A stretch of 48,875 bases of DNA, counting the filler, from Jimgerdemannia flammicorona (taxonomy: Eukaryota), in assembly GCA_003990765.1 (NCBI GenBank). It is 2 parts of 2 records of this genome, joined end to end, with 100 filler letters (N's around TTAATTAATTAA, not from the genome) between each part and the next. Parts side by side here need not be neighbours in the genome. Positions count along the whole stretch, not along the records: positions 24,491 to 48,875 come from RBNJ01000981.1; 1 more part is not named here. One strand, 5' to 3'. The position numbers and the translations under genes are program-made. A model generated the notes under the pieces. The model saw only the letters and a program-made list of their open reading frames with translations. It did not search any database and had not been told where the DNA came from. Each line of letters begins with the position of its first letter. Position 1 is the first letter of the stretch. Positions 10,747 through 48,875 of the stretch are shown piece by piece.

Positions 10747-10754
10747 TATAAATA
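10747..10754 (+). promoter_or_regulatory. LTR TATA box of element B (second copy 19007-19014)
   Basis: GTATAAATACCCCC in both LTR copies; the same motif occurs in the LTRs of element E. Confidence 0.7.
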
Positions 10755-11223: not shown

Positions 11224-11236
11224 TGGTAGCAGCAGT
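11224..11236 (+). promoter_or_regulatory. Primer binding site of B1, initiator tRNA-Met type
   Basis: TGGTAGCAGCAGT three bases after the LTR end. TGGTAGC complements the 3' end (GCUACCA) of eukaryotic tRNAiMet. Confidence 0.8.
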
Positions 11237-13247: not shown

Positions 13248-13655
13248 CTAGACTTTGTGAAGTTAAGATAAACTGCTAAGGCCCCAACCAAAGGAAGCCA
13301 AAAAGCAGCTGGATATGACCTGTATACAGCCGAAAAAGCTACAGTTTTCAACTGAGAAGTCAAACAAGTCTATACAGGAATCAGCATCCAAATCCCTGAA
13401 GGACATGTTGGAAGAATATGCTGTTGCAGCAGCCTAGCATTGAAAGGACTCTCAGTAGAAGGAGGAGTTATCGATGAAGATTACACAGGCGAAATCATTA
13501 TCCTCATCTGAAACCATAGTTGGACACCCTTCAAGATCTCTATTGATTTCTGCATTGCCCAGATCCTATTCAAAAAAATCAAGTCAACCCAGACAGTCAA
13601 GGAAGTCTCTGAACTACTGCCCACCATCCAAGAATCCAAAGGATTTGGCTCATCA
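13248..13655 (+). pseudogene. dUTPase domain of B1 (B2 copy at 21509-21920)
   Basis: KAPTKGSQKAAGYDLY, TGISIQIPEGHVGRI, SSLALKGLSVEGGVIDEDYTGEI, IAQILF, KGFGSS. Confidence 0.92.
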
Positions 13656-19493: not shown

Positions 19494-19495
19494 AC

Positions 19496-22400: not shown

Positions 22401-24390
22401 CTTGGGACTCTATGGTTAAAACAAGAGAACCCCATGATCGATTGGGTAAACTATTCTCTGACCATCAAGAAAGGACACCACAACTTCAAACTGTAAGGCA
22501 AAAAAGACCCACTTAATTCTGGTGACCCTGGACCAAAGATCACCCACATCAATAAGTTACAACTTAAGAAATTGGCCAAGAAATGCCCACTCTTCGCCAT
22601 CTCCATCTGCCCATCCAAAGGAGAACCTGAGAATTCTGAAGAAGATTTTTCCAAAGTTGACAGCTGTGTCAGACCACTACTCCAGAAATTTCGAGACATA
22701 TTCCTAAAGAAACTCCCGAAAGGCCTACCTCCTAAACGAGCAGTAGACCATACCATCAAGACCATCCCAGATGCCAAACCAGCCTTCAAGTCAATCTACC
22801 ACATGTCTCTAAGAGAAATTGATGCACTCAAGAAAGAAATTGACGAACTTCTAGAGTAAGGATTCATCAGACCCAGTGTATCACCCTATGGCACACCAGT
22901 CCTCTTTATTGTCAAAAAAGGGAGAGACCTGTGAATATGCATTGACTACTGCAATCTCAATGAACAGACCATCAAGAACTGTTGCCCACTACTGAGGATT
23001 GATGAAATATTCGATAGACTTACCAACCCACAATTTATGAGCTCCTTCGACCTGCGAAATGGTTACTAGCAAATTGCTATGAAAGAAGAAGACATCTACA
23101 AGACAGCTTTCCAAACTTACTATGGACAGTTTGAGTTCCTGGTTATGCCCTTTGGCTTAACTAATGCCCCAGCAACCTTTCAGACACTGATGAATACCAT
23201 TCTGCATCCATACCTAGACAAATTTGTTGTTGTCTACATTGACGACATCCTAGTCTTCAGCAAAACCCTGGAGGAACATCTTGAACACCTTGAACTAGTA
23301 CTACTGAAACTCTGAGAAAACCAACTCTTTGCAAAACTTAGCAAGTGTGAATTTCTCCTGAAAGAAATTCAATTTCTTGGACACATTGTTACTCCAAATG
23401 AAATTAAAGTAGACCCCAGCAAAATCTCTGCAATCAAGGATTGGCCCAGACCCAAGAAGCTAAAAGACCTCTAGTCATTCCTGGGATTAGCAAACTATTA
23501 CAGGCAATTTGTTGCCAACTTTGCTAAAATCGCTACCGCCCTCACCCAAATGACCAAGCACAGCAAAAAACAAGAACAACCCTGGACCATGAAACAAGAG
23601 AAAGACTTCAACAATCTTGTAACTTGGGGACCCAAACAAGATACCACCTTTCAAGCACTGAAAGATGCCCTGATAACTACTCCAGTATTTCAAGCGGCAA
23701 ACCCTGCACTATCATATAAAGTTACCACTGATGCCTCTGACCTAGCCCTTAGAGCAGTATTCATGCAAGAAGGACACCCAGTGGCCTATCACTCCTGCAA
23801 GTTCAATGATGCCGAAATCAACTACACAACTCATGAGAAGGAAATGCTAGCCATTGTAGACACTCTGATCAAGTGGCGACTATACCTAGAAGGAGCACAC
23901 TTCACTATATTGACTGACCACAAGTCATTAGTCAACATCAAGACCCAGGCTACCCTTTCTCGAAAGCAAGCTAGATGGATGAAAGTCCTCACCAACTTTG
24001 ACTACGAAATCCAGTACCACCCTGGCAAGAAAAATATTGTTGCCGATGCAATCTCCAGACCACTAATCGAAGAGGTTATCCAAACTCTCACCTTGGTTAC
24101 AAACTCCATCCTGGAACAAATTATCACAGCATGTGTCAATGATAAGGAAGCTCAAGCACTACGAGAAATCCTAAATAGTGACAATGCTGACAAGTATACA
24201 CAGTATCATCAATACCAACTGAAGGACAATGCTATCTACTACAAAGACAGACTGTATGTCCCAAACAACCAAGACCTCCGAAGGACTATCCTATTCAAAT
24301 GTCATGATGCCCCTACAGCTGGACATTTAGGATTTGATAAATGTTATGAAGTTATCTCCCAAAACTTCTATTGGCCCTGTATGGCAGATC
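19496..24390 (+). pseudogene. B2 polyprotein from leader to integrase zinc finger, truncated by the spacer
   Basis: ORFs 21942-22352 (DSGASG), 23079-23315 (YIDD) and 23550-24390 (RNase H, CHD...GHLG). Colinear with B1. Confidence 0.95.
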
Positions 24391-24490
24391 NNNNNNNNNN
24401 NNNNNNNNNNNNNNNNNNNNNNNNNNNNNNNNNNTTAATTAATTAANNNNNNNNNNNNNNNNNNNNNNNNNNNNNNNNNNNNNNNNNNNN
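24391..24490. other. Artificial assembly spacer N44-TTAATTAATTAA-N44
   Basis: Symmetric Ns around a palindrome that has stops in all six frames; exactly 100 bp. Confidence 0.97.
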
Positions 24491-24510
24491 AAAAAAAAAA
24501 AAAAAAAAAA

Positions 24511-24731
24511 AGACATGAGTGTGTCCACAGGACATGAGTGTGTCCACAGGACATGAGTGTATCCTCAGGACACAGATAAACAATCCTGATCTGGTATCTT
24601 GGCTAATTATAAGTATGGCAGGTATGAGTAACTATGATATACTGGAAGTCACATCATGCTGAGTAAGTATGCTAATTGTTCGCATCATCTGGCTAAGTTA
24701 TAATTCAGGTGGTACGTTTTGGTCTGTTACA
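24511..24731 (-). repeat. Partial 3' LTR of element D, with 19-bp tandem repeats CAGGACATGAGTGTGTCCA
   Basis: Matches ~33635-33873 with only transition differences seen. Confidence 0.93.
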
Positions 24732-25280: not shown

Positions 25281-27969
25281 GGTGTGAGAAGAAGTATATC
25301 TTAAGGTGATTGATATGTACTGGTGTTCTCAGGGTTCATCCATCCATGCTTCTTAAATAGATGCTGGTTTCTCTGATGTTGTGTATAAGATAAGGTCCTT
25401 CCCATTTTGGTTCTAGTTTGGTGGCAAAATTTGTCTCAATTATGCTTCTCCAAACTAGAACTTGATCTCCAATCTTGATCTCCTGATCCTTCTGTTTTTG
25501 GTTATAGTACTTCTTTTGTCTTTCCTGGGCTTTGATAATCTGTCCTTGGGCTTGATTTCGTAACTGTTCTGCCTTCTTGAGGAGGTCTCCAAGATTCTCA
25601 TGGTCAGCAGTTCTGGTTTTCTTGGCAAACATCATTTCGAATGGCTTTTGTTTAGTGAATGTGGCAGGGGTATTCCGAATTTCCCATAGGATCTCAGGTA
25701 AGCAGAGGTCCATATCTGAGTGTAAGTCCATGGAGGAGGCCTACAATAGTTAAGGCATCTGCGATTTCCATTGGGAAAGCCTCGGGCCACTTGGTCAGAT
25801 GTTCTACAAATGCAAGGATATATTTGTTTCTTCTTGGTATAACTGGTAGAGGTCCAATTACATCTACTCCCCATCTTTGAAAGATGTGAGGGGGTGGGGG
25901 AATCAGTTGCAGAGGGGCTTGATAGTTCTTCTTCCTTGGTACTTCTGGCAGATGTCACATTTCTGAATGATGTCACAGACTTGAGTTCTGAGGTGGGGCC
26001 AATGTTGATATTGTTTTCAAATCCCATCTTCTATGCTTGTTTGTCCTTAGTGGGCTTTCTGATGTTCTTTTCGAATGAGATCTTCTTGTGCTTTGATAGT
26101 CTGAGAAGCTTCCTTTAGGGTGTGGTTCCTTGGGACACCCTTCCTCTAATTCATTGGGGCTGGCGGGAAAGTACATCAACATTGTTGTGGGCTTTCCCTG
26201 CTTTGTGAATGATGGTGATTTTGTAATCCTGAAGGATAAGGATCCACCAGGCTAGAATTCCAGCAGGTTCCTTGTGGTTGAATAGCCATTTGAGGGCTAC
26301 ATAGTCTGTGATCAGGGTGAACCTTTTTCCGATGAGATAATGCTTGAACAGGGTGACTGCCCATATGACTGCAAGGCATTCCAGTTTGGTGCTACCATAG
26401 TTCATCTGCTGCTGATTGGTAGCTCTGCTTGCATAAGCTATCACGTGGTGCTGTTGGTCAGGTCCTTCTTGGGCTAGAACTGCTCCTAGGCCATCTTTGG
26501 AAGCATCTGTATACAAGATGAATGGCTTCTGTAGATTGGGGCATACAAGGATTGGTGCTGTAGTCATGTGGTTCTTGAGTTCTCTGAAGACTTTTTCCTG
26601 TGATTCTATCCATTTGAATGTCATTCCTTTCTTGAGAAGGATTCAGATTGGGGCAGCAATTTGGGCAAAATCCTTGATGAACCTTCTGTAGTAGGATACT
26701 AGTATCAGGAATGATAGTGTTTCTTTTGGAGTCTTGGGTACTGGCCAATTGTTGATCTTCTCGGTTTTCTTTGGGTCTGCATGAGTTCCTTCTTTTGAGA
26801 CCACAAATCCCAGGAATTCAAGTTTCCGTTTTCCAAAGTAGTATTTCTTTGCATTCAGTCTCAAGTGATTCTTGCAGGTAAGCTTGAAGAATTCCTCTAG
26901 GTGGTGTAGGTGTTCTTCGAAATTTGCTGAATAGATGTTGGAATCATCCATGTATACAATCAGACAGTGGTGGATCAAGGGGGCATAGACTGAATTCATC
27001 ATCCTCTGGAAGGTGGGGGGTGCATTGCAGAGTCCAAAGGGCATTCAGAGGTATTCAAACAGTTTTCCTAGAGCAAGGAAGGCTGTCTTTTGAATGTCCT
27101 TAGGGTCCATGGGGATCTCATGGAATCCCACGAAGAGGTCCATACTGCTGAAGTATCTGGCATCTTGTAACTGGTCCAAAAGGTCATCGATTCTGGGCAA
27201 AGGATAAGCATTCTTTTCAGTGACTGAGTTGAGTTTTCTGTAATCAATGCAGAGTCTCCATCCTCCTTTCTTTGGTACAATAAGTATAGGGCTGGCCCAG
27301 GGGCTGGTAGAGGGTCGGATGACTCTATTGTCTAAGAGTTCTTGGATGTGCTCCTTTTCGAATGTTTTCAAATGATGGGGTATTCTATAGGGTTTCCGCC
27401 AGATGGGTGTTGCACTTTCTGTATTTATGCTGTGGTGATATGATGGGTTGTATGGCAGGTTACTATAATTAGTGGTGAAGATATCTTGATATTTGTTGAG
27501 AAGTTCTACTAGTTGTTGCTATTGTTGAGGTGTAAATTCTTCTCCAATGTTGGTGGAAGGCTTCACTATCTCCTGGGTCGCAGAGGGGTCTTTCCTTTCT
27601 TCTGGGACCTTTTGCCGTTTCCCGATAGGTTTAGTTCATAAACTTCCCTATGAGTTCAGTTGAGAAAAGGCACCAGATGTCCTATGATGGTTCCTTTCGG
27701 CAGGATGATGGTCTCCCAACTTTGGTTGGTTGCTCAGGAGTGTACTGGGTTCATTTTGTCAGGGAATGTGTGTCCCTCTATGTCCAGGTGTGGGATATCT
27801 TCCTTGGGTTCAAAGAAAAGGTTCCTGGGGTCGGGTGGTGCAAATATTTCGAAGGTGGTTTGTTCTCTAGGCTCCAGGATGAGATTCTTGTGTAGTCTGA
27901 CTGGTTGCTGGTATACTTGCTGGGAAATATTCCTCTTGAGATGGTTGACTTGAAGGAGATGTACCTCTT

Positions 27970-32115: not shown

Positions 32116-33873
32116 TGTAACGTGCCAGCTCAATAGAGGCAAATTACAAGGTTGGGGGTTGATGTAGTTTGGCATGAGCCCCCAGTTACTTTGTCAAAAA
32201 GCAACAAAATGTTTTAAGATTCCTGAGGTCCTTGGTGTTTAGCGGTATAATAGTTAAAGCTGGATATCTGCAAGCGATTTCCTTATTGGGACAGTTCTCT
32301 AGATATAGTAGCGATTTGTATGTCTTTTCCTTCTTGGGTCAACTGGGAATGGCACAATTTGTATATAGTGTGAGTGGCTTCCTTCTTGAGTAATGGGTGA
32401 TTTCTGTGTAGCGTGATGATCTCCTTGTGCATGACAGTCTGGCAATTTAGCAGTTCTCCTTATGCGATTTCTACATGACGATCTTGTGTAGCGCGATGAT
32501 CTCTATATAGCACGGTGGTTTCCAAAAGTATGCAATTTCTGGTATGACGGTCTGGGTGATATTCCTTATGCAGATGTTCTGATAATTCGGCGGATAACTC
32601 GATTTAGCTCACTGGGAATTGTATGGCATGGATTCTTCTTCTGGGAATAATGGCTCCGATAGTATGGATAATTCGAATAACTGGGAATAATGCTGGTGGT
32701 GGATTCTTCTCGGGCTCACTGGGAACGATGAATAACTTGGATATCGTGGTTTTGGCTTCAACTGAGAATACAGCGGGTAACTTGGAAATGGCGGATGATG
32801 CGGATTCTCCTGAATCGGTGGGCTTCTTGAAAACAGCAGCTTAACTGGGAATTTAACTCAGATGGCATGGATTCTTCCTGAATCGGCGGGGTTCTTCTGG
32901 GAATGCAGTGGATAACTCGAAAATGGCAGATGACATGGATTCTTCCTGAATTGGTGGGCTTCTTGAAAATGGCGGCTTAACTGGGAATTTAACTCGGATG
33001 GTGCGGATTCTTCCTGAATCGGCAGGGTTCTTCTGGGAATGCAGCAGATAACTCGAAAATGGCAGATGACGCAGATTCTTCCTGAATCGGTGGGCTCTAA
33101 CTGGGAAATGGGATGGTAGCTTGGAAAGGGTCTCTTGGCAAAGTTGCATCAAAGACTGGCTTCGTTTGCATGAACGGATCACTGCAAAGTTGCATCAGAA
33201 ACTGGCTTGGGCAAGGCAGCTTTCTTGGGGAGGTAGAGAATAACTTGGAAATGGCGGCTTATTTCTTAAGCGGCGGACTACTCAAACGGCGGCAAAGTTC
33301 TCTTTGAACTTAGACAGCAAATCTTCAGGCTTATCTGGCAAGTGAACCAATAGTTCCAAAGGCGGCAAAGTTCTTCCTCGAACTTGGCGGCAAAATCAGC
33401 TTTATATCGGAAAGTGGACCGGAGTGGAAAGGGGACCAATGCTCAATCTTTAGAGACTTCTTTGGTATTTATATTTCAGACTGAGGTTTTATTCACTCTC
33501 ATCTCTGGGGTAATTTATACAAGTTGGTTGCTATCTGATTACTATATGGCTAACTATAGATTTGCTATCTTCGGTAATGTTTGGGTGTATCCTCTGGGTA
33601 CAGGTGTGTCTATAGGACATAAGTGTGTCCACAGGACATGAGTGTGTCCACAGGACATGAGTGTGTCCACAGGACATGAGTGTGTCTGCAGGACATGAGT
33701 ATATCCTCAGAATACAGGTAAATAATTCTGATCTGGTGTCTTGGCTAATTATAAGTGTGGTGGGTATGAGTAACTATGATATACTAGAAGTCACATCATG
33801 CTGAGTAAGTATGCTAATTGTTCGCGTCATCTGGCTAAGTTATAATTCAGGTGGTACGTTTTGGTCTGTTACA
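32116..33873 (-). repeat. 5' LTR of element D (1758 bp)
   Basis: TGTAAC...GTTACA termini, TATA-like GTATAAATTACCCC at ~33508-33521, and internal tandem repeats. Confidence 0.9.
32770..33095. repeat. ~135-bp tandem repeat (~2.4 copies) inside the D LTR
   Basis: AAATGGCRGATGA recurs at ~32786, ~32921 and ~33057. The subunit GATTCTTCCTGAATCGG occurs five times. Confidence 0.85.
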
Positions 33874-34492
33874 ATATATACAAGTATATTTCTCCTAATG
33901 AGGTCTTGATAGACATAGTTTATTATTTACTGGAATAAAGTTAGTACATTGTAGAGTCTAAATGACATTCAGAGGTATTCATACTATTCTTATTTAGTAA
34001 TAAAGATTATCTTGTAGATATTATTCTTAATAATAGATATTACTTGGAATCCTTGAAACTGGTCAGTAGTGGTCATGAACTTGGCTTTTCTAAGAACATT
34101 GAGAAGGTCATCAATTCTTAGTAGTGGATAGGTATCTTTTATTGTAATCTTATTAAGTTTTCTGAAGTCTACAATTAGTCTCCATCCTCCTTTCTTTAGT
34201 ACTATGATTGCTAGTGAAACCCAGGGGCTTGATAAGGGTCTGATAATTTCATTTATATATTATTGTTCAAACTCAATCAGGTAGTATGGTGTTTGATAGG
34301 AGTATTGATGGATTGGTTTAGTATCTCCTATATATATAATATATTCTCTATATTGATATGGTGGAAAGTTATTATATGTAGTGGTAAATGTATCTTTATA
34401 TTCTTCTATCAACTTCTATATCTATTATTACTAATTCTTGATTAGAGTTGTTTTGATATTGACAGCTTTGATTACTGAGTCTTTCTCTCTAG

Positions 34493-34875
34493 TAGTGCTC
34501 CCAAACAAGTCAAATCAATTCGAATTGAATCGAATTGAGGGTTAAATGAGTCAAATCGAATTGGGGATTTTTCAATTCGAATCAATTCAAATTGAATCAA
34601 AAGTTGAATCAAATTGAGGGTCTAATTCGAACCCTAATTTTCAAAATGCAATAACTCAGCGTAACCTCATCCAAATTTAACATACTTTAGCTTGTTAGAA
34701 TCACATTAATACGGTGAATCTAACAAGCTAAAATACATTAAATTTGGATGAGTATTCATCGAGTTATTATATTTTGAAAATTAAGGTTCAAATCGAACTT
34801 CAAATTGAATTGGACCTTTGATTCGATTTGAATTGAATCAAATTGGACCCTTGATTCGATTCGTTGGGAGCACTA
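34493..34875. mobile_element. hAT-family MITE, 383 bp, fold-back structure
   Basis: TIR TAGTGCTCCCAA...TTGGGAGCACTA, perfect 8-bp TSD CTCTCTAG (34485-34492 / 34876-34883), GAATC arrays and a long central inverted repeat. Confidence 0.95.
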
Positions 34876-35279
34876 CTCTCTAGTACTGTCAGTCTCACTA
34901 GAGAGGGCTTGCTATTTTCCAAGAATTTAAAGACCTCTTCCTTGTAAGTATTTATCAGTGGTTCAAAATATCTCAATATTGTTCTTTTGAGAATTGTTAC
35001 TACTTCAAAGCTCAGGTTTTGAATAGAAATATAGATTAGTGACATCTGGTCATAGATTTATTTTTCAGTCAGGAGAAGGTAATACTTTTCTCAGAGTTCT
35101 ATTAATAGTTCAAATATCAGATTGTTAACATTTATAGGTAGGTATATATTAAGACTTCTTTATTGATATGGTTGAAGGAGGATATCTTTTCTTGCTTGAA
35201 TAGAGTAATAGATATATAGTTTCATTTAGCAGAACTGAGCTACTATTATCAAGTAAACTTCAATAGGTAGTTGAGACAT

Positions 35280-35695
35280 TCTATTAGTACTTCCAAAGCC
35301 TTCTTGTCCTCTCTTTATACTGCTAAGTTGGTTCACTTCTTAGATAATGAGCTATAATATCTTGATGAACAGAATTTGACAGATGGCTTCTAAGGGATTA
35401 AAGACTTGATAGTTTCTACTATTGTTATAAATAATAACTTTCAGAGGACCTTAGTAGTCCTGGTCAATGACTCCTCCTTCTAATGTAATTCCTTTGGCTA
35501 CTAGAGATGATCTTGATGCTAATTGTCCATAGTGTTCAGGTGGTATAGTAAGTATAATCTGAAGGTCAAAGGTTCTAGTGGTTCTGGGATAGAGTATTTC
35601 CTGATAGGAGAGACAGAGGTCATATTCTACTGACTCTTCTATCTGTATAAGCAGGGGTTGTATCCAAGGTGATAGCAGTTTAACTTGGATGATTT
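35280..35695 (-). pseudogene. dUTPase domain of element G
   Basis: SVEYDL, IPPEHYGQLASRSSLVAKGITLEGGVIDQDY*GPLKV, ICQILF, RGQEGFGST. Confidence 0.9.
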
Positions 35696-36415
35696 GCTGG
35701 ATCTTGAGGAATAATGTCTCAGTAGTTGCTATTGTAAGAAAGAATTCTATATATTCTGGCTTAAAGAATAGTCAATATTTGGATTTCTTATATAGTTGAA
35801 TTCAGTTTTTTCAAGTAGATCTAAGACTTTTATGAAGGAGAAGGTAAGGTTGACTCCTTGTTTGTCTTGGTGTGATCACCAATATCAATAAATGATAGCA
35901 AGAATTTCTAATAGTAGATTCCAGATAGAGGTCTTGTTCTTGACTTTATAATCTTCTTTATAATTAATCTCTTTGTATTTTCAACAGACTCAGCAGATTC
36001 AAGATTCTTGCAAAGTAGGGTTCTTTCTCTTAACTTGACTCTTATAAACATCATCACTAAGGTAAATACTTTGATATTTATACTAATAACAAATAAAGGT
36101 CTTTCTACAATCACAGTGTTCTTGTTTGATGAATTCCTCATTTCACTGTTTGACTTTTTTGCTTGTAGGATATCTCCTTCAATATTTATCATAGATGGGT
36201 AGAGTGATCTGAAGAGCTTAGGTAATAGTGTAGGTATTGTTATTATTGTCTTCAACTGTGAGAGTCTCTAAAGGTTGGTAAGAGAGAATCTTCTATTCTT
36301 CTTTGTAGGTCTTCTTGAAAACTTTGAGGGTAAGTGGTTGTATTTATATAAGAACTGAGGCTTGTTTTAACTCATCTTTATCTTTAATTACTGATATTGG
36401 GATCTTCTGAAGATC

Positions 36416-37208
36416 TGTAATAACTCTCACTTCTACCCCTCTCTTATCTTTTGGATAATTAGGGAAGTGGACTATTACTTAGGGACTTAGTACACAAAGT
36501 GTACCAAGAAGCCTTCAGTTTGAGGAAGTGCTTACTTGTAAGTAAGTGTAGTAGCAGTGCCTTCTATTTCAAAGGTCTTTCTCTATTGCCCTATTTTGAG
36601 AGTCTTGTTCTTTGCTGTGCACAGACTGAATTCACCTTGGAATTCAGGTTCAATGGGTTTACTTAAGTCTTTGGGGATTTATATACTGGTCTCAGTTCTG
36701 GCAAAAGTTAGCTAGGCTTCTGGAGTTTAGTCAGAAACACTAGAGTCACTTAGATGTCATTACTAAGACTTAGGGGAATGTGTGTATGTGGGGGAGGACC
36801 CGATTCTTGTATTAAGAACTGAACTAAAACTGCTTTATTTTGAGTGGAAACTGGGGGGTATTTATACAAGTTGGTCTGCGATTTCTGACTAAGTATGAGT
36901 GACTAATTTGGTAACTATAATGAGGTTTGTGATTGCGACCTTTGTTAGGTGGTTTTTGGCAAAAACAACTTTGTGATCAGGATCTCAATTACTAGACAAT
37001 GATCAGCTGCTATGGCAACTGTTGCTGCAGCACTGATTGTTGGGGATAAGCTGGATATCAATTTCCACATTGTTTTGCATCATTCACATCATTCATCATT
37101 CATAATTCATATATCGTGCTTTGTTTGTATGATGACATCATCGCTGCCAGATCACATGATCACTCATCTCATCATGTCCCATCTGTTCGTTCATTCACAT
37201 CTATTACA
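36416..37208 (-). repeat. 3' LTR of element E
   Basis: Colinear with 44780-45572; TATA at 36859-36866. Confidence 0.97.
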
Positions 37209-37219
37209 TTCTTCCCTCC

Positions 37220-38052
37220 TTAGAAATGAACATCCTCATTGATTCAGAAATTGAGAACCAGGGGAGAGAAATGTGGGGAATCCTCCTCTGGGTTGTTGCC
37301 ATCTTCTTCAGTAACAGGGAGGGTGGTTGCTGATGGTTTGCTGTCCAGAGTGGAGAAGTCAATGAGGTCTGCACATGGTTCTTGCATAGAAATGGGTGCT
37401 GGTGTAGGAGTTCTCCATCTGATGTAGTTGGGGCCATCCAAGTAGGGTTCTTGGTCCTCATGCCTGAGAATATCCATTTAGATAGGCAGTCCTTCAAAGA
37501 GGTCAGAGAGGTCTTGGAGCCATTGGTCTGGGTTATTATTCAGGAGGGGACTCCAGTAGGGTTCGCAGTCAGTAGACTGAAGAGAGATCCAGAAGTTGGC
37601 TTCTTGGGCTACCTTGATCTCAAGCTCATCAACCTTGGAGAAAGAGAGATTTTGGAAATCCTTCAGTTGGACATAGTTGAGGTTGGAGATTGCAAAGAGT
37701 GTATAGTGCATGATTTGCTGGCAAGTCTTTGCTCATGTCTATCCAGGTGGGTCCAGTCAGAGACCTGGTCAGTAGATAGATTCTTTGCCCATTGGAGGAG
37801 TTGATGGCCAATTTTATATTCATGCCAGATCTCTAGGTGGCTGGTAGCAAGGTAGGCCCTTTTAATGACCTTGCAGTGGTTGAGAACATAATGTTCTAGA
37901 TCCTGGCTGGAGAGGTTAAGGGCCTCTGAGTGGCAGTTTCTTCCTTGGATAGCAACCTGGATGTGTCCAAAGAGGCAGTCAACCTGGCTTGGGAGGGGCT
38001 AACTATGGCAGGCAGTTTGGTGGTAGGTAGCTTGGTTGCAGGTAGCAGGCAT
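37220..38052 (-). pseudogene. 3' accessory ORF of element E (~270 aa), frameshifted at ~37715
   Basis: ATG at 38052, then ...HLEIWHEYKIGHQLL..., then ORFs 37478-37711 and 37244-37477. Homologous to 47535-48350. Confidence 0.75.
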
Positions 38053-38116
38053 TCTTGTCTTATCTTTTCTTTGTGAAGAGAGAGGGATGAGGGTTGCAGG
38101 GTATTCTTGCCTTGGG

Positions 38117-38124
38117 TATTTATA
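38117..38124 (-). promoter_or_regulatory. Putative internal TATA box for the accessory ORF of E
   Basis: GTATAAATACCC, the same core as the LTR TATA, ~65 bp upstream of the ATG at 38052. Confidence 0.55.
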
Positions 38125-38274
38125 CTTATTCACCCATCTAGTGTGACCTTCCTTTGGTCATGCTTTCTAGCAAAATGTGTGACCTATTGCTGTAAACAGA
38201 GCATGTGCTGATCACATGAGAAAATTCTGATTTCCAAGATATCATCACTTATAGTTATGGTTACACAGGGTTAA

Positions 38275-38519
38275 CAGGTCTTGGTCCTCTTTTTTTTTGT
38301 CTGGTTGGTGCATTTGCAAGGACTGGCCATCCTTGTCTAGGGCAAGGGCTCTCATTGTCATGGTTGGGGGTTTGAACCTCTCAGAAATAGACTTTTCTTA
38401 TAATCCGAGGCAATTCCTAGTAACAATATCTGTCACATGGATGGACTTAGACTGGTTTTGACATTATTGGCTTTCCTAAGTTCCATATAAAGCATTCATC
38501 ATCATATAGCAGAGATGAC
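38275..38519 (-). ncRNA. Conserved non-coding element, candidate structured RNA (copy in E)
   Basis: Nearly gap-free nucleotide alignment to 46997-47244 of element F, with several hairpins in the CpG-restored consensus. RNA function is inferred only. Confidence 0.45.
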
Positions 38520-38719
38520 ACAGGTGGCATGAAATAGAGTTGTTCAAATGCATTTTGCTGTAATATGCTAGACTGTCCTTTACTCAGACTTCTTCATGTT
38601 GGTTATCTATAGTGTTCCTTTTTTCACAATGTTTGATATTATATGTTTCCAGATAAAATATGTAGTGTCCTTCTGCTCACTGTGTGCTCCAATACTTAGA
38701 GCTGTAGTTCTTTCCTTTG

Positions 38720-41700
38720 CTGGGGAGTGAGTGTTTCCATGTAGTCCTAGAGGGCTTCGCATGCATTCTTCAGGGCTTCTTCTTTTTCCCAGGTGGCATC
38801 ATGGGTGGGGTAACCCTTCCACTTGATCAGGATAAACTGCTTGACTGTTTTGGAGTATTTGCAGACCTTGTGGTCAAGTACTTCCTCAATTTTAAATTCC
38901 TCATGATCATTGATCCTAATTGGGAGTGGTGGTGGAACTGTATGCTCAGGGAATAGATTCTCATAGTAGTTCACTAATTGGCTGATATGGAATACTTGGT
39001 GTACTTGGATATTGTGGGGGAGTTGCAACTTGTAGTTGACTTCACTGATTTTTTTCCATGATCTTGTATGGTCCAATTCTTCTAGTGCAGAGTTTCTTAG
39101 CTGGTTGTTGTGCTAGAGTGTCTGGGTAGAGGTGGTCTGTTCTAAGCATGACCATATCACCAATGTTATAATGTTATAGGAGACTTCTCTTTGCTTCAAG
39201 TTTGTATACTTAATCTGATAGTCTTGTGCTTCTATGAGGGCATCTCTTGTTATTTGCATAAGATCAGAAATGGTCTCAGCCAGATCTTGGGCTGCTGGGA
39301 CTGCTGATTTTGCTGTAGTACTTGGGGTCCTTGGGTGTTGACTGTGGTTCAGGAAGAATGGAGTCTTCTTCATAGAAGTTTGCTGACTATTATTGTAGGC
39401 AAACTCAGCATGGGCTAGGTACTTGTCCCAATCATTTTGCTTGTAATAGCAGAAGATGCTAAGTATCTGTTTGAGAGTCCTGTTGGTTCACTCAGTTTGC
39501 CCATTAGTCTGAGGGTGGTAGGTAGTAGAGAACTTCAGCTTAGTTCTATGGAGAGAGAAGAATGCCTTCTAAAAGTTACTTGTGAACTTGGCATCTCAGT
39601 CAGATACAATAGTACTAGGCATGCCATATAGCCTGAATACTTGATTGAGGAAAATCTTGGCAATCTCTGGTGCTATAGTGGTGGTCTTGGTTGGTGCAAA
39701 ATGGGCTTGCTTACTTAGGTGGTCCACAAATACCACAATGACATCCCATCCTGCCTTGGTCTTGGGGAGTTGGACAATGAAGTCTATTGCAATCTGATCC
39801 CAGTTGTGGCTCAGGATAGGTAAGGGTTGCAGGAGTCCTGCTGGTAGCTTGTTACCACTTTTGAATCTTTGGTACATCTTGCATGAGGCCACAAAGTCTT
39901 TGATGTCCTTGGTCATCTTTGGCCAGTAAAACTCTCTTGAGAGGAGATTGTAGGTTTTTTCAAAACCAAAGTGTCCTGCCACAGGAGTGTCATAGAGTTC
40001 CTGCATGATCTTGAGTTGCAGAGTATCATTGTTGGGTATAACTACTCTATCATGGTCTTGGTAGATAAGTCTATCATGGTAAGTGAATCTCTTGACCATT
40101 TGCCTCATGGGTTCTGGGACCTTGGCTTCTGGGTCTTGGCAGAATTGAAGGAATTTCATCAGGGAGCTGTCTTGCTGGTAGCCAATCTTGATCATTTGGG
40201 TGAGATCTCCAATTACCTTGACCATGAAGACAAGTTCATCTTCCATATACCTGGAGAAACCATCAGCCACATGGTTGGTTTTGCCAGAGATATACTTAAT
40301 TTCCATATCAAAATTAGTAATGATTTCCATCCAGCAGGTTTGTCTGTAGGTCAGCATGGGCTGTGTGTGAATATACTGCAGTGCATGGTGATCAGTATAG
40401 GCCACAAATAGTTGTTCTAGAAGGAAATGTCACTATTCCTGGAGTGCAGTAACAATGGTCAGGAGTTCCTTCTCATGGGTGGTATACCAGATCTCAGCTG
40501 GCTTGAGCTTTTGGGAAAGATAGGCCACTGGGCAGTCCTCTTGGCTAAGCACTGCTCCAATAGCAATGTCAGAGACATCTGTGGTCAGGGTGAATGGTCT
40601 GATAGGGTTAGGTGTAATTAACACTGGAGCCTTGGTAAGGAGTCTTTTGAGATGGTCTATAGCCTGGGTGCATTCTGGGGTCCATTCAGCTTTGATGTTT
40701 ACACCTTTGCAGGCCAGGCTGGTCAGTGGGGCTGTAATAGCAGAGTATTCTTAGATAAACCTTCGGTAATAATCAGCAATACCCAGAAAGCACTAGAGTA
40801 GCTTGAGGGTAGTAGGGATGGGAATATTCTTAAGGGCTGATACCTTTCGGAGATCTACATTGATTCCTTCAGCAGAGATGATATGTCCTAGGTACTCTAT
40901 CTGGGCTTGATAGAACTTACACTTGCTCATCTTGGCATAGAGCTGGTGTTCTCACAGAAGGGTCAGTATCTGTCTGAGGTGGGTGTAGTATAGCTCTACT
41001 GTCTCACTATAGATTAGTATATCATCAATATACACAAGGACACAGATGTTGAGGAGTGGTCCAAAGATGTCATTCATCAGATACTGGAATGTTGCTGGTA
41101 CATTGGTCAATCCAAAGGGCATGACTCGAAACTGGTAGTGTCCAAACTGTATTTGGAAAGCTGTCTTCTCAATGTCCTTTTCATCAATGAGAATCTGGTG
41201 GTAGCTATTTCACAAGTCTAGTAGGGAAAAGGTCTTGGCCTTAAAGATTTGGTATAGCAACTCATCAATCCTAGACAAGGCATATTGGTTCTTGATGGTG
41301 ATCTTATTGAGGGCTCTGTAGTCAATACACATTTGCAGAGAGCCATTCTTCTTCTTGACAAATAGAATGAGGGCTCCAAATAGAGAGCAGCTGGGTTCAA
41401 TGTATCCTTGGGTCAGTAGTTTGGTCAAATCATCCTTGAGGGTCTTGAGTTCAGGTTGGGCCAGTTGGTAGATACTCTTGTATGGGGGTTCAGACTCTGG
41501 GATAAGATCAATTCCATATTGGATTTGGCACTTAGGTGGGAGTCCTTGAGGGTCTTGGAATATATCTTAGAATTCTTCAAACAGTTCTTGAGCTTCTGTT
41601 GGGATTGGGCTACTTGTAGCTTCAGTGACTTCTTGTACTATACAGATGAAGTAGGTGTTTCCCTTTTTTCGAGAGAGTCTCTTCATTTAAATGGCAGAGA

Positions 41701-44700
41701 TGATTTCGATTCCTTGGTGGTTGGTACCTTCCTGTGGTGTCAGGGTGATCTTTCTGCCTTCATGGGTCAGGTTAACCTCATTGGTTCTCCAGTTGATGTC
41801 TGGGTTGTGCTGGGTCAACCAGGCTTTTCCTAAGATAATATCTTATTCTGGGAGGTCTACAATACTGAAGTCCAACTTTTCTTGATATTTGCCAAACTTG
41901 AGCAAGAGATCCTTGCAGATCTTGGTCAATGGTGCAGTTTTTCTATCACTAAAGATAACACTTCTTTTCTCAGTGGCTGGCCTGCCTCGGGCTCCAATCC
42001 TCTTCACAGTCTTTGTGTTGATGTAGTTTCCAGTAGCACCACTATCAAGCAAGACATTGACATTCTGTCCATGGACTTGGCCTGTGAACTTGATGCAACT
42101 GTCCTCCTTCTTAATGGTGTTGAGCTCTTCATCTTCATTGTTGTTGTCCCAATTGCTATCAGTCTCCTCGAAGTCAGTTTCTCCCCATCCTTCACAAGGA
42201 GGGTTGTCTTGTTTGGGTTCCTCAGTCTGTTGAGCTTGGCATTTCTTGGATTGAATTTTGAAAACTTTGGAGAGGCATGCATGGCATTCACCAACATATT
42301 CCATGCAGTACATTTGAATAGAATGAGAGCATCATCTACATAGTACATATCCATCTGTAATTCTCTTATACCAGTTTTCATCATCTTCCTTCATGGTAGT
42401 GACCATTTGACTGAGAGGTTTGTTGGTTGATTCAAACCCTTTCTTGCCATGGTCTGTCTGGGAGAGTTCAGAGACTTCTTCAATGGTGAGATCTTTATGG
42501 ATTTCTTCAATGATTGCTTGGGCAATTCTTTGGCTTCAAATGATGTGTCTCCAAAATTTCGTAAGATGACACAGATTTCGCCAGTAAATCCTTGATCAAC
42601 TACTTCTCCTCCTAGTCCAATGTTGAACTCTTTGGCTAGGCTGCTTCGCTCAGCAAGACAGATGTATGTACCTTTGGGAGCTTGCATTACAATCCCTGTT
42701 CACACTGTAGCATTGGTACTTGGTGGAATTGTGAGGTCTTGGCTGCTGTAGAGGTCACATCCAGCATCAGTTAGGTGGGCCTTAGTGGAGATGGTAGCCT
42801 TATATCATATCTTCTGTACTTTGATGATATTCTTGGGGTTCTTCTTTTCTGGACCTTTTCTAATTACTGTAATGTTCTGGTTACTGGGTTCACCTGTTCT
42901 GTTCTTCTTCTCAGAGTATTAGAATGAGATGTGTCCTGCCTTTTTGCAGATGAAGCACAATCCTTTTTTGCAGAGCTGCTTCTTTTCATCCTCAGTGGGA
43001 GGTCTGGGTCCTCTGGGGTTTCACTGGTTCCTTTGCTCATTCCTTTGATCATATCTTTGGTCACTTCTTTGATCATTTCTCCTAGTAGAATTCCTTCTGT
43101 CTTGGTTATCCTTCTTGTATTCTTGATTTTGTGGGGCTTGTGCAGCAAGGATTTCACGGGCTCTTCTTTGTACTTGGGCAAAGCACCATGAGTAGTGGGG
43201 GCATCCTTGGGAAAGACCTTGTTCCTTGATCTTCTGAGTAAGCCAGTCTGGTAGGGCTGCAAAAAGGTGGTTGGCTCTAATACCATTGATGGCCAAGTTG
43301 TTCTCCTGGTAGGTGAGTCCAACAGTTTTGAGGTAGGCATCCATTCTGGTGGCAAAGGTTTCTAGGTCCTCTTTGCCATTCTTGTGGAACTTCATCTGGG
43401 AAAGCTTATTCTAAGTTTCTTGTATGTAGGCCACATTTTGGAATTTTGTCAGTAGTAAGGCCTTGAGTCCTGGGCCTACTTCATAGTCATCCCAACCTGG
43501 TCTATTGTTGGTAGGTGCTTGTCCATTGACTTGACAGCAGGCTTCCCAGGTTACTGGGTGTTGTTCCAAGGTTTGCCAGAATTTGGTTGCTGTTCCAGTG
43601 AAGAATGTGGCTACTGTTTCTACTTGTGCTGCTGATGTGGCAAACAGTTGTTGAAGAGTGCTGTTCTGGTTGTTGGTGAGCATTCCTATAGATACTCAGT
43701 TATCATTCCATTGGTTTTCTCAGTAGCCTGTATCAACTGCATTGATGAAGTTTTCAATGTTACTGTTTTTTTCACTAAATGTTGGGATTCGCAAGGTCTT
43801 GGTTGGCTTGTTCTGTTCAGCAATCTGTCCTACTATCTCTACTAGTGCTACTAGCTGGGTAGTCAGTGCTGCAATGTTGACATCTACCATTGTGTTGACT
43901 ATTGGTGGTGGGCCTATTGGGGTAGATTCTCCTGAAGATTGTTCTGCTTGGTGGGGTTGTGGTGCTGTATGACTTGGGGTTACTTAGTTCCTGGATATCA
44001 AGTCAAAGAGTCCTGTGAGAGAGGGTAGACCAAACCTCTATATAGGTGGCTGAGTTGGTTCTGGGGTCTGATCTTCTTGACCTGTGGTTCTTTGGTAAAT
44101 TTCTAAGCCTGCTGTTCCTAGTTAGCTATCATCAGACTGGTAACCTGTAGAGACTTCGTCTGACTCCTTTCCCTGATGAGATAGTGCATCCTCATACTGA
44201 CTAGGTCCTTCAAAGAGGATATCAGTCTCTGGCTAGGTAGATGGGCCTGCTTCTTGTTCAGCAGTAGGGGATGGTAGGCCTTTTTGCTTGTTCTTGTACC
44301 CGGTTATAGCAGAGGCATAGTATACAACTAGCCTGTAGTATAGAGAGGTCTTGGTTGGGGTATGATGATATCTATCAGAGATAATCTACTTGGCAGCTAC
44401 TTCTCTTATAGCAGGTGGTGTGATATAATCTAGAAAATCCTGGATGGCTACAGCAGTAGATTCTGGGGTCCTAGTAGTTCCAATATATCCTCAGAGGAGT
44501 TCATAGAACCTATGGTGGCTGACAATATTCCTAAGTCCTGGGTGGTATGTCCTAAAGGCCTGGTATAGATCCTTGTAAGCTTGGTCAATTACAAGCTGGT
44601 GGGTCCTTGGGTCTGTGGTTTCCTGGTACCACCTGGTCCTAATGGTAAGGGTTTCTCTGGCTCTGGTTTGAGGATCCACAGTTGATTCTGGAGGTTACTC

Positions 44701-44777
44701 CTGTCCAAAGTTGGTCTTATTCCAACTTCAGGAGTGTGTTCTTGGTGCCTTCTTGGCTGGTAATCCACTGCTACCAA
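38720..44777 (-). pseudogene. E polyprotein: leader-gag-dUTPase-protease-RT-RNaseH-integrase-chromodomain
   Basis: Gag ATG at 43890, CFICKKAGH, dUTPase ~42430-42830 (ERSSLA, VVDQGFTGEI), VLLDSGATGNYI, VYIDDIL, TTDVSDIAIGAVL, IAIDFIVQLP and chromodomain EEFKIEEVLDH...IKWKGYPTHDATWE. Confidence 0.95.
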
Positions 44778-44779
44778 GT

Positions 44780-45572
44780 TGTAATAACTCTCACTTCTAC
44801 CCCTCTCTTATCCTTTGAATAATTAGAGAAGTGGACTATTACTTAGGGACTTAGTACACAATGTGTATCAAGAAGCCTTCAGTTTGAGGAAGCGCTTGCT
44901 TATAAGTAAGTGTAGTGGCAGTGTCTTTTGTTTCAAAGGTCTTTCTCTGTTGCCCTATTTCAAGGGTCTTGTTCTTTGCTATGCACAGACTGAATTCACC
45001 TTGGAATTCAGGTTCAATGGATTTACTTAAGTCTTTGGAGATTTATATACTAGTCTCAGTTCTGACAGAAGTTAGCTAGGCTTCTAGAGTTTAGTTAGAA
45101 ACACTAGAGTCACTTAGATGTCATTACTAAGACTCAGGGGAATGTGTGTGTGTGGAGGGGGACTTGATTCTTGTATCAAGGACTGAACTAAAACTGCTTT
45201 ATTTTGAGTGGAAACTGAGGGGTATTTATACAAGTTGGTCTGCGATTTCTGACTAAGTATGAGTGACTAATTTGGTAACTATAATGAGGTTTGTGATTGT
45301 GATCTTTGTCAGGTGGTTTTTGGCAAAAACAACTTTGTGATCAGGATCTCAATTACTAGGCAATGATCAGCTACTGTGGCAACTGTTGTTGCAGTGCTGA
45401 TTATTGGGGATAAGCTAGATATCATTTTCCATATCATTTTGCATCATTCGCATTATTCATCATTTGTAATTCATATGTTACACTTCATTTGTATGATGAT
45501 GTCATTGCCACCGGGTCACATGATTGCTTGTCTCATCATGTCCCATCTGTTTGTTCATTCATGTCTATTACA
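44780..45572 (-). repeat. 5' LTR of element E
   Basis: Followed on the minus strand by the PBS; TATA at 45223-45230. Confidence 0.97.
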
Positions 45573-46996
45573 AGATCAAGGATTTGACAGTTACTACAGT
45601 CATCTCTTAGTGAGTAGAAATGATTACAGTGTTTATACATATCTTTCTGTTACACTATCTACCAGATCTCCAGATCTTATGCCCACCCTCTATTCAGATC
45701 CACCATTAATCATCACATTTGAATTTTTTTCCAGATTAGCAGTCCCCTTACTATCAGCAGTTTTACTCCCCCCAGCTACTACTTTCTCAGCCCTGCTACC
45801 CACACTGCTTCACCAGACCCTGCAGCCATTACCATCTTCTTACTCTTTCTCAGTCAGCCCTCTTATCTAGTTGTCAGATATCTCCCCTTCACCTTGTCCA
45901 CGAAGTTCATCCTCTTAGTCTTCTGTTCCCTAGTACTGCCTCCTCTCCTTTTACATTCTCTAGTCAGTAAGCCCTGCATACTTCCCCCCAAGCTATGACT
46001 TCTTCCTATATACTACTAGTCAAATATACTAAGATTACCCTGCCTAGTATATACTTTAGAATACTCAACAGTTGCTATGTTACTAGTACCTATTTTTCAA
46101 AAATAATATCTTGAGTATTGCCAGAAGTTTGTATAACCTAAATGTTACCAGAGAAAGGTATCTGACTTGGGAATAGATATCATTGACCCTTTGCTAGTAA
46201 CTAGCTAGAGAAAATATTATATTCTCACTATTGAAGATTATCTGATAAAATAGTCTAAAGTCTTTGCTATTGAGACTGCTGATGCTCAGACAATATTGAG
46301 ATCTTATATAATAAAATTTTCAGCTACCATAATATCTCCAAGGAAATCATCACAGACCAAGACTGGGAATTTATCAAGTATGAAAATCTTTGCAGCTAAC
46401 TTTAAAATCAAACTGCATCCAACAATAGTCTATTACCTATAAGTAAATAGACTTACTAAATAAATGAACCAGACCATCAGTAAGACTAGAGACCAATTGA
46501 ATTAGGATATCTACCTCTTAGTAATCTTATTTAGTATCTATACTTTAAAAGCTACTGCTACCCATCAGACCTCTTTCTATTTAGTATATAGCTAAGAAGT
46601 ACAAGATTCAGCTAAATCAATCTAGCTAAATTTGGTAAAACAGGTCACTGAAGAGATCACTCAGTTATATGAAGTATACTAGTAAGTATAAGGATTTATT
46701 ACTAAGATATAAGAATACCAAAAGAAGTACTATAACTATAAGACTGATCTTGAACCTCTACTTATTGGACAATAAGTCTTAGTGTACCATACCATCATAG
46801 AAGGAAACTGGAGTACTAAACTTAAACTGAAATAGAAAGGACCCTATCTTATTTACCAAAAGTTCACAAACCATACTTATTAACTCAAGACTCTGAATAG
46901 AGTTATACTCAAGACCAAGATATACTGCAATCATATAAGACCTTATTACTCAGCAGAAGCAAAATATATTTAAATAACTCTATTTACTCCATTTGT

Positions 46997-47244
46997 ATCA
47001 TCTCTATTAGAGAATGATAGATATTTCATATAGAACTCAAGAAAGCCAATATTATTGAAACCAATCTCAAGTTCATCTATATGATAGATATTACTACTAG
47101 AAATTACCTTAGATTATAGAAAATATTATTTCTGAGAGGTTCAAATTCTCAGCCATGATAATGAAAGCCCTTATCCTAGATAAGGATGACTAGTTCTCAC
47201 AAATGCACCAATAATCCAAAAAAAAAAAAGAGAATCAAGACCTG
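46997..47244 (+). ncRNA. Conserved non-coding element, candidate structured RNA (copy in F)
   Basis: Homologous to the reverse complement of 38275-38519. Confidence 0.45.
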
Positions 47245-47534
47245 CTATTTCTATATAACTATCTCTACTGAGAATAACTCTAATTTTACAAGGAGTAGAT
47301 ATAACAACATCTTAAAAACTGATAACATCAAAAGCTAGAAGATAGCTCAGACTTTATAAGCCTCTGGTTATAAATTGTAACTCAACTATAACTTATAGTG
47401 ACCTCAGTAGTATACTACTCCAAATTAGGTAACTCTACTCTCTAGACCAAAGAAAAAGACCCTTAGAATATAAAAGAGATATCAAAAGGAGTATAAGACA
47501 TTATCTATAAATAAGAAACTCACTATAAAATAAA

Positions 47535-48350
47535 ATGCCTACTATTTGCTAAACTGTAAGATCAAAGAATCACTAAGATTTATCAGTCCAATATCAGATA
47601 TTCTCTGATATCAAAAGAGCTATAAGAATATATATAAGAAGAACTCCAAGCCTAAACCTCTTTATAAGAGACCCATATCACTATACTCTCAACTACTATA
47701 AAATAGAAACAAGAATCTCTACTACTATCAAGTGCCTCTGGATGTGGTAAGAATACAAGTTGAGGCATCATCTCTGCCAAGATCTCTTACAGACCAGCTC
47801 TCAAGAAATTATAGATACCATATACCTGGTTAGGTATAAATAGAAGTTAGTTAAGAGAGTTTATCAGATCTTCAGGTATATACTCTGGACCATTCCCAAC
47901 TTGGAATATTTCAAGATTTCAGATATTCAAGAACTAATAAGCTACTCTATAGACCATCTTGAAGAAATAATTGCAGAAGAAGCCCAGTCTACTATTATAG
48001 TTAAGAGTAATGAGGTTCAAGATCTTTGGAATCTCATTCTAAAAGACAATCCAGATCAGTTTCTTCAAGGTCTGATTGTATTGTTCTAAGGCCCTCCTCT
48101 GAGAGTCCAATACTCTCAGAATTCTACAGATATACTCTACTTTGTAGATAACAATACTATTGATTGAAGATCTCAAAAACCAAAACAGAGTGAATCACTT
48201 ATTTCATAGGAAGAAGATCTTAACAACCTTCTGAAGGAATATATAAGTCTCCTATTATTACCCATAGAGCTCTTCACTAACCTCAGTATAACTGTAAAGA
48301 ATGCAGAAAATGATTTGGCTAGACTCTATGAAGAAAATAAGAAGAAGGAT
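47535..48350 (+). pseudogene. 3' accessory ORF of element F
   Basis: ATG at 47535 is in frame with ORF 47901-48089: MW*EYKLRHHL...RVYQIFRYILWTIPNLEYFKISDIQEL...NPDQFLQGL. TATAAATA at 47506. Confidence 0.7.
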
Positions 48351-48410
48351 GAGGATGGTATAATCTCAGTCATATTGAACTTCAAGTTGCATAAAGATAG
48401 CTCTATTAGC

Positions 48411-48595
48411 CAAATTTGAGTAAGTTAGTTAGTTGCATAAACAGTGACTACCTAACTAGCCAAATTTGAGTAAGTTAATTAGTTATATAAATAGTAATTA
48501 CCTAACTAATCAAATTTGAGTAAGTTAGTTAGTTATACAAATAGTGACTACCTAACTAGTCAAATTTGAGTAAGTTAGTTAGTTGTATAAATATC
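48411..48595 (+). repeat. 50-bp tandem repeat, ~3.7 copies, in the putative LTR of F
   Basis: CAAATTTGAGTAAGTTAGTTAGTT starts at 48411, 48461, 48511 and 48561. Confidence 0.95.
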
Positions 48596-48731
48596 CTTTT
48601 GACTTATAGTAAATAAACCTCAGTCAGCTTAAGTTTGAAGTAAAAAGAATTATAGAGAAACCCACTATCTCTAAGTGATTAGAATTATTCTAAGAAATAA
48701 GACAACTAGAGCAATAATTACTCAAGGTTTA

Positions 48732-48856
48732 TGTAAAAGAATTTACTTATTAGGGTAACCATTATGTAGTTCTGGAAGGGTTTTCTAGAAGTTCTGGATA
48801 TTCTAGAAGACTGTTTTCTTATGGTCAAGATCAATTTCATATAGAGTACATTCTCT
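48732..48856 (-). mobile_element. 3' end (U5) of a B-related LTR inserted into the LTR of F
   Basis: The reverse complement matches ~19370-19493 (ATATGAAATTGATCTTGACCATAAGAAAA...GTTACCCTAA) and ends TTACA with no PBS following. Confidence 0.85.
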
Positions 48857-48875
48857 TTTTTTTTTTTTTTTTTTT

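Follow-up and report, generated by a model that had tools for sequence, protein, structure and literature searches.

Introduction

Fungal chromoviruses carrying a dUTPase have been described, some of them with what a figure legend calls an 'additional ORF of unknown function' (ORF, open reading frame; Novikova et al., 2010; PMC2864245). Here we report on a block of about 310 nucleotides (nt) between pol and an accessory gene, ORF3, in two long terminal repeat (LTR) retrotransposons, E and F, of Jimgerdemannia flammicorona. Both lie in a 48,875-nt stretch made of two records of assembly GCA_003990765.1 joined end to end (hereafter the window). E shares with the published elements the set of protease (PR), reverse transcriptase (RT), RNase H, integrase (IN) and chromodomain, along with a dUTPase whose position varies between families; in the parts of that paper drawn on here, neither the pol-ORF3 intergenic region nor a shared non-coding block is described (Novikova et al., 2010). 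A sequence-only reading of the window had singled out positions 38275-38519 and proposed either a structured RNA module or a segment recently exchanged between families.

In foamy viruses, accessory genes are served by an internal promoter that lies within env and depends on a transactivator. The locus described here would share with them a second promoter upstream of a 3' accessory gene and a subgenomic mRNA independent of the LTR, both predicted from sequence only; it differs from these viruses in being a fungal retrotransposon and in the intergenic placement of its candidate promoter, whereas theirs sits in env under transactivator control. Mosaic LTR retroelements include retroviral template-switch recombinants and Ty1/Ty2 hybrids. 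E and F are likewise families of one host genome with a patch whose relationships conflict with those of its flanks, but here the patch spans ~310 nt, is wholly intergenic and has two highly diverged flanks. A short patch between diverged flanks calls for either two switches or a conversion tract of limited length.

The Rev response element (RRE) and the constitutive transport element (CTE) of retroviruses are cis-acting RNA elements next to accessory genes. The block resembles them in its nucleotide-level conservation and in lying close to an accessory gene in the 3' portion of the genomic RNA, but shows no excess fold stability, covariation or Rfam match. With short interspersed nuclear elements (SINEs) derived from transfer RNA (tRNA), and with type 2 units of RNA polymerase III (Pol III), it has in common a B-box-like 11-mer and a downstream T-run; unlike SINEs, it has no A box, tRNA-like fold or target-site duplication and is colinear in three elements rather than scattered.

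Results

E and F share a conserved block between pol and ORF3

The two full copies of the block and its best-conserved part are located as follows.

38248..38559, minus strand: conserved block, E copy, separated from the pol stop by 188 nt and from the ORF3 ATG by 193 nt
46958..47270, plus strand: conserved block, decayed F copy, GC content 0.281
38306..38389, minus strand: 84-nt core differing by transitions only (F 47127-47210), its 3' half, 38349-38306, still recognisable at 10-54 of a third element, L001

The reverse complement of the E block aligns to the F block at ~78% identity. The sequence-only reading had recognised a nearly gapless match of 38275-38519 to 46997-47244, and both strings that it quoted are present. 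Two methods confirm this match: self-blastn of the window pairs 38272-38559 with 47247-46958 in inverted orientation (77.5% identity over 293 columns, E-value 2e-56), and transition-tolerant Smith-Waterman alignment joins 38559-38257 to 46958-47262 with a score of 443, against 45 for the best of 10 shuffles. The similarity is far beyond chance. The next colinear E/F segments beyond the block score 75 and 55, and the flanks cannot be aligned as DNA. The window holds no third copy, its other places scoring at most 40 compared with 36-44 in 5 shuffles.

Differences between the copies are mostly transitions, as had been claimed. Across 286 aligned positions, 224 are identical, 55 differ by a transition and 7 by a transversion, with 6 gap columns; the longer 312/313-nt alignment contains 61 transitions and 11 transversions, and at 50 of the 61 transitions E has G or C where F has A or T. 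The copies are further separated by four indels, of which three are 1 nt long and the fourth 3 nt, while the 84-nt core has neither transversions nor indels. In a global alignment, each 60-column bin inside the block contains 1-3 transversions and likewise 1-3 gap columns, except that the bin at its 3' edge has 13; bins outside it contain 2-16 transversions and 0-28 gap columns.

The E LTRs show the same bias. They lie at 36416-37208 and 44780-45572 (direct repeat, 793 bp each, 90.8% identity) and are separated by 71 transitions, mostly of CpA/TpG to TpA, but only 2 transversions; the CpG observed/expected ratio in E is 0.07, and GC content beside E is ~0.32 (33874-36415 and 45573-48875). The LTR differences are the signature of cytosine deamination resembling repeat-induced point mutation (RIP), with hypermutation and CpG loss, a process linked to fungi. 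Since the LTR pair carries this bias, the transition excess of the block is a genome-wide property.

The anatomy of the two elements is colinear. The 696-nt intergenic region of E consists of 188 nt after the pol stop, the block, and 193 nt up to the ORF3 ATG; in F, ~123 nt precede the block and 264 nt separate it from the ORF3 ATG. This argues for a homologous position and not for two independent insertions. Because ORF3 starts only at 38052 (see below), the block is intergenic and non-coding with respect to pol and ORF3, in agreement with its earlier description as a non-coding element upstream of the accessory ORF. The flanks had been described as similar at the protein level only, which holds for ORF3 (31% identity between E and F over 87 amino acids, aa) but not for pol: the 1.4 kb of F upstream of the block has no detectable similarity to E pol.

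Block and ORF3 relationships conflict

An ORF3-profile scan of metagenome contigs yielded one locus, L001, among 196 pattern matches, and the same scan of viral contigs yielded none among 73. A purine/pyrimidine-degenerate pattern of 43 nt from the core had 0 matches in the metagenome contigs and 0 in the viral contigs. L001 is 1535 nt long, as is the contig of the ORF3 homologue P0007, and carries ORF3 at 376-1083 with its ATG at 376. Its first ~110 nt can be aligned to the 3' part of the block, and a 45-nt core (L001 10-54; E 38349-38306; F 47175-47210) lies ~320 nt upstream of its ORF3. This core scores 36 against E and 37 against F, with null maxima of 29 and 31 (200 shuffles each), and is the only significant local match of the 378 upstream bases of L001 to the E and F intergenic regions. 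A third ORF3 element thus has the core at a colinear place, which supports the earlier claim that the block travels with the accessory ORF and points to the block as an old component of the pol-ORF3 spacer of this clade. To judge from these matches, at least the 45-nt core changes more slowly than the surrounding spacers.

In the ~105 block columns shared by all three elements, E and F differ by 5 transversions and 3 gap columns, E and L001 by 16 and 9, and F and L001 by 17 and 12. The L001 block is therefore much more diverged from that of E, though L001 ORF3 is closer to E ORF3 than F ORF3 is. A block that groups E with F against an element whose ORF3 is nearer E points to exchange of a patch within the genome, and the earlier alternative of a segment recently exchanged between families fits this conflict. 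Transversions in the block (7/286) can be set against 2-16 per 60 columns in the ORF3 and pol flanks. We accordingly favour, at a probability of roughly 0.45, an ancestral pol-ORF3 intergenic control segment that was exchanged between co-resident families, with a mechanism, a promoter and a regulatory role that we infer. Under this explanation, ultra-conservation of a folded RNA does not account for the near-identity of E and F.

Transversions are more frequent in the block pair than in the E LTR pair (7/286 against 2/793; Fisher p = 0.0019), and the F block is as GC-poor as the F flanks. Recent gene conversion between these two nearby inverted copies was rejected on both counts, and the same two observations place the exchange before the decay of the copies.

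In the one sequencing run listed (X1, DNA contigs), 1948 short contigs covered all 30 bins of the E interior. The bin with the block had the highest summed contig depth of the 30 (345, against 59.5-303.7), and among the positions listed, 38364 had the largest number of contigs over it (22). These depths, which do not rank regions, fit weakly with the block being present in more copies than the E flanks. Among the best-supported loose contig ends listed in X1, none falls at a block edge.

The patch might also be a neutral by-product of recombination without a function of its own, the 45-nt core of L001 being residual ancestral similarity. The conflict between block and ORF3 relationships, the sharp patch edges and the lack of any structural or family signal in Rfam and fold analyses would all be expected of such a patch; in L001, however, the core matches E and F significantly and the spacers do not, which suggests constraint on at least the core. 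We regard a neutral patch as unlikely.

A putative internal promoter precedes ORF3

The intergenic region of E contains a single TATA[AT]A[AT] motif.

38117..38124, minus strand: TATA box TATAAATA, 72 nt before the ORF3 ATG, with no second TATA[AT]A[AT] in the 696 intergenic nt of E

L001 has one such motif in 378 nt, at -80 from its ORF3 ATG, and AT-rich F has five, one of them at -66. Between the TATA box and the ORF3 start, E, F and L001 all lack an ATG, while 20 ATGs lie farther upstream of the TATA box in E. A conserved TATA distance combined with an ATG-free leader is thus found in all three elements. The position of the TATA box at -66 to -80 together with this leader suggests that ORF3 may have its own internal promoter. 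In E, the block lies ~120-435 nt upstream of the TATA box, a distance at which fungal upstream activating sequences are usually found, and a CCAAT box within it is conserved in both E and F. The block would then be the distal part of an ORF3 control region, upstream of a positionally conserved TATA box.

Several points weigh against an exchanged control segment. The comparison involves two full copies and one partial copy (~100 nt), the block tree rests on ~105 columns, and L001 comes from another organism, where a faster rate could mimic the conflict. The identity of E and F could in principle also result from strong selection on a nucleic-acid element. That the TATA boxes of E and L001 agree in position was noticed post hoc and is a coincidence of about 1 in 20 given one TATA box in each. 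Two features of a small ORF in the block are left unexplained by a promoter: its stop coincides with the 3' edge of the block, and the only E/F indel after its ATG is of 3 nt, the three before it being of 1 nt. Finally, the RNAalifold energy of the block has a z score of -3.05 relative to column shuffles.

A small ORF in the 3' third of the block

The small ORF has the following position.

38245..38361, minus strand: 38-codon ORF plus TGA in the 3' third of the block, ATG at 38361, TGA at 38247-38245

If this third encoded a 38-residue peptide or a regulatory upstream ORF, the conservation would be that of a coding unit and its leader. The placing of its stop and the 3-nt indel, both described above, speak for it, as does a good start context, with A at -3; in L001 the frame is open from the contig end, with A-L..DGQ...MHQ in common and three synonymous third-position changes. 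Past MHQ, however, L001 matches as nucleotides and not as peptide, and it stops earlier. The 200 nt upstream of the ATG are equally conserved and contain frame-breaking indels, two stops interrupt this frame in the F copy (from 47155), a database protein search with the peptide gave no candidates sharing words, and 38 open codons are not unusual by chance. A coding unit is therefore very doubtful.

We also considered the ATG at 38361 as the start of ORF3 itself, since it is in frame with the first half of ORF3. This was rejected: the homologues begin at the later MPA, and five stops intervene.

Fold and covariation analyses of the block

The sequence-only reading proposed, as one possibility, a structured RNA module: a ribozyme, an internal ribosome entry site (IRES), an export or packaging signal, or a Pol III-type unit. 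As a cis-acting packaging, export or response element of the full-length genomic RNA, the block would be conserved for its fold and perhaps recognised by the ORF3 protein, much as Rev recognises the RRE. It is non-coding and beside the accessory gene in three elements, and RNAalifold proposes 57 pairs of which none is broken in either copy. A CCTTG/CAAGG hairpin still pairs in F through a G-C to A-U change and has a shifted 4-bp version in L001. The energy z score given above nonetheless falls within the range of ten control pairs, taken from the E LTRs and the 90%-identical A/B elements described below (-0.48 to -6.64, 4/10 at or below -2.67), and for the antisense strand of the block the value is -1.48. 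Single sequences fold like their shuffles, with z scores of 0.12 for E and -0.91 for F and with 48/100 and 14/100 dinucleotide shuffles folding equally well or better.

Covariation is no more telling. Double-sided changes number 4, against a shuffle mean of 6.4, and 93% of 300 column shuffles have at least 4; the observed covariation is reached by 20/500 partner shuffles, a comparison of two full sequences only. What look like compensatory changes are G-to-A and C-to-T substitutions at symmetric CpA/TpG sites and so are expected from deamination anyway. The stems listed by the sequence-only reading need a hypothetical restoration of CpG; the unaltered sequence contains the stems GTCATC/GATGAT and CCTTG/CAAGG, but the region as a whole folds like its shuffles. 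A central polypurine tract is not conserved: in E and F a run of A9-12 leads into GAGGA or GAGAA, and L001 has mixed sequence at the aligned place.

Searches with the covariance models of Rfam 15 returned 0 matches at gathering score in the whole window. In E-value mode, the best matches had E-values of 1.6-6.5 and scores of 13.8-19.4 bits, where the gathering scores are 39-90, and the families differed between the copies. Near-identity over 312 nt is moreover unlike the usual evolution of structured RNA, and the structural model of the ORF3 protein is too poor to assess RNA binding. With folding like that of shuffles, no match at gathering score in Rfam, no tRNA and covariation not exceeding that of controls, a structured module found no support in the two copies, and we consider a conserved RNA fold improbable.

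A B-box-like motif in the block

The best-conserved 19-mer of the block includes a motif resembling the B box of Pol III promoters.

38368..38378, minus strand: B-box-like 11-mer GGTTCAAACCC (F copy 47138-47148, GGTTCAAATTC)

Both copies fit the B-box consensus GGTTCGAANCC with one deamination-type change. A pattern tolerant of deamination, GGTTCRAANYY, with R allowed at position 6 and Y at 10-11, matches only the two block copies in the window (2 matches against an expectation of 0.65), and a TTTT run follows the block by 14-24 nt in E and F, with one at a similar place in L001. These features could mark a Pol III-type or tRNA-derived unit inside the element, either a SINE-like insert or a site for transcription factor IIIC (TFIIIC). 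Against this, at least two pattern matches occur in 15/100 window shuffles, ARAGORN finds 0 tRNA genes in the window, and Rfam gives no tRNA or SINE family even at E-values up to 10. By eye, with no formal scan and with transitions allowed, no A-box-like string (TRGCNNA..GG) is seen 30-60 nt upstream (38445-38390). Neither the E nor the F copy of the block is flanked by a target-site duplication, and the block is colinear in three elements. The Pol III-type unit entertained by the sequence-only reading is thus highly improbable. The absence of TTTT inside the block was discarded as a sign of Pol III, because 30-41% of background windows of 313 nt are also free of TTTT.

A further possibility is a dedicated ORF3 recognition module, either a response element bound as RNA by the ORF3 protein, like the RRE by Rev, or a TFIIIC-type B-box boundary that would shield the internal promoter from the silencing of the remaining element. 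We consider such a module a long shot.

ORF3 belongs to a conserved protein family

The accessory gene was delimited in both elements.

37244..38052, minus strand: E ORF3, starting MPATCNQ, with one frameshift near 37720 and two in-frame stops
47535..48221, plus strand: F ORF3, ATG at 47535, tblastn matches at 47583-48221, at least three in-frame stops

Reading the E frame through with X at stops, a phmmer search against 1.84 billion representatives gave four hits, P0003, P0004, P0005 and P0006; P0007 and P0008 are cluster members of the last three. These three and their two cluster members can be aligned to E ORF3 over ~210-250 residues. P0004 and P0005 start with MPA/MPP exactly where E reads MPATCNQ, which places the ORF3 start at 38052 and the block upstream of ORF3, not within it. 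At its other end, E ORF3 closes with ...VLNF directly before the polypurine tract. E ORF3 is nearest P0004 and P0007 (56-62% identity) and F ORF3 is nearest P0006 and P0008 (49% over 192 aa); by tblastn, ORF3 is present in the window only in E and F. With lengths of ~250-340 aa and 58 invariant columns among 5 sequences, ORF3 is, on the evidence of these alignments, a real conserved family of retrotransposon proteins.

P0003, from a 602-nt contig in ENA, is 69% identical to a wrong-frame translation of the 3' end of E ORF3 and is a gene-calling artefact on another E-like copy; it was also the one match of a search among shorter proteins. A near-length word-index protein search with ORF3 found nothing among 630 candidates, and Pfam recognised no ORF3 family in five E ORF pieces and P0004-P0007. 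Neighbours in the ESM Atlas scored 0.84 or below, and the best match of a profile search against the PDB had an E-value of only 0.74. An AlphaFold2 model built from 5 sequences has a mean predicted local distance difference test (pLDDT) score of 36.1, too poor for fold comparison or for conclusions on RNA binding. Antisense to E ORF3, a 156-aa ORF at 37334-37801 on the plus strand has no Pfam match and is probably open only by chance, on the strand opposite a coding region.

Carrier elements and their surroundings

LTR retrotransposons are nested within one another in the window; E is inserted in the decayed element F (GC ~0.3). A Pfam scan of 27 ORF translations of the window gave most of the following.

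36416..45572, minus strand: element E, a complete LTR retrotransposon with LTRs, target-site duplication, polypurine tract and Pfam domains
42394-42699, minus strand: dUTPase of E (Pfam)
41846-42331, minus strand: aspartyl protease of E (Pfam)
40955-41209, minus strand: RT of E (Pfam)
40436-40750, minus strand: RNase H of E (Pfam)
39599-40429, minus strand: integrase zinc finger of E (Pfam)
38747..39112, minus strand: end of E pol, with an ORF for a Tf2-type SH3 domain and chromodomain at 38750-39112 and the stop at 38747-38749
46170..46856, plus strand: F region upstream of the block, similar at the protein level to element C (25870-25381, minus strand) and not to E

The E LTRs start with TGTAAT and end with ATTACA, the target-site duplication is AGATC (5 bp), and the polypurine tract AAGGAGGGAAGAA (37209-37221) abuts the 3' LTR. 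The domain order is dUTPase, PR, RT, RNase H, IN, chromodomain and then ORF3, the Pfam families on the minus strand being Asp_protease_2, RVT_1, RT_RNaseH_2, Integrase_H2C2, SH3_Tf2-1 and Chromo, with dUTPase before PR. E thus combines LTRs, duplication and polypurine tract with a PR-RT-RNase H-IN order and a C-terminal chromodomain, and is a chromodomain Ty3/gypsy element (chromovirus) with a dUTPase. A second dUTPase domain, like that of E upstream of a protease, lies at 35454-35771 on the minus strand, in a C-like element to the left of E.

In F, the 1.4 kb upstream of the block resembles the region that follows RNase H in element C. The two share a coding region without Pfam match (F 46170-46856, plus strand; C 25381-25870, minus strand) at 40-53% aa identity, with no detectable counterpart in E, and the F segment is presumed to be the 3' part of F pol. 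Element C has LTR-like repeats at 24512-24731 and 33654-33873, at the inner ends of which are 19-bp tandem repeats (GACATGAGTGTGTCCACAG-like; 24493-24591 and 33578-33733).

Elsewhere in the window, a 6.3-kb direct repeat (A/B) pairs 9802-16128 with 18064-24390 at 90% identity and a spacing of ~8262 bp, and 4608-5166 also matches 17528-18086; the pair may represent a tandem arrangement of two elements from one family that possibly have an LTR in common. Runs of N follow it at 24391-24434 and 24447-24490. Three 50-bp tandem repeats occupy 48411-48593, just downstream of F ORF3, and an inverted match to the A/B repeat (11110-11210 and 19370-19483) begins at ~48743. An inverted repeat at 34573-34704 and 34714-34845 has arms of 132 nt that are 78% complementary across a 9-nt gap.

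Discussion

We propose that the block would be an ancestral part of the pol-ORF3 intergenic region in a chromodomain Ty3/gypsy clade, and that a patch of ~310 nt may have passed fairly recently between two families of one genome. As a route, either template switching on co-packaged RNAs or gene conversion among master copies is conceivable. From then on, the dead copies would have gained almost only C-to-T and G-to-A changes.

The block opens no new class of element. For genomes with RIP-like mutation it carries a caution, because transition-rich differences and 'compensatory' changes from G-C to A-U in palindromes are expected there and are no evidence of RNA structure. Were the block a dedicated recognition module, its exchange between unrelated families would show that such a module is a portable cassette. 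If the exchange of a control segment is correct, the locus would be an example of patchwise exchange of non-coding control segments between diverged LTR-retrotransposon families in one genome, and it would provide a subgenomic promoter for the widespread, uncharacterised third gene of fungal chromoviruses.

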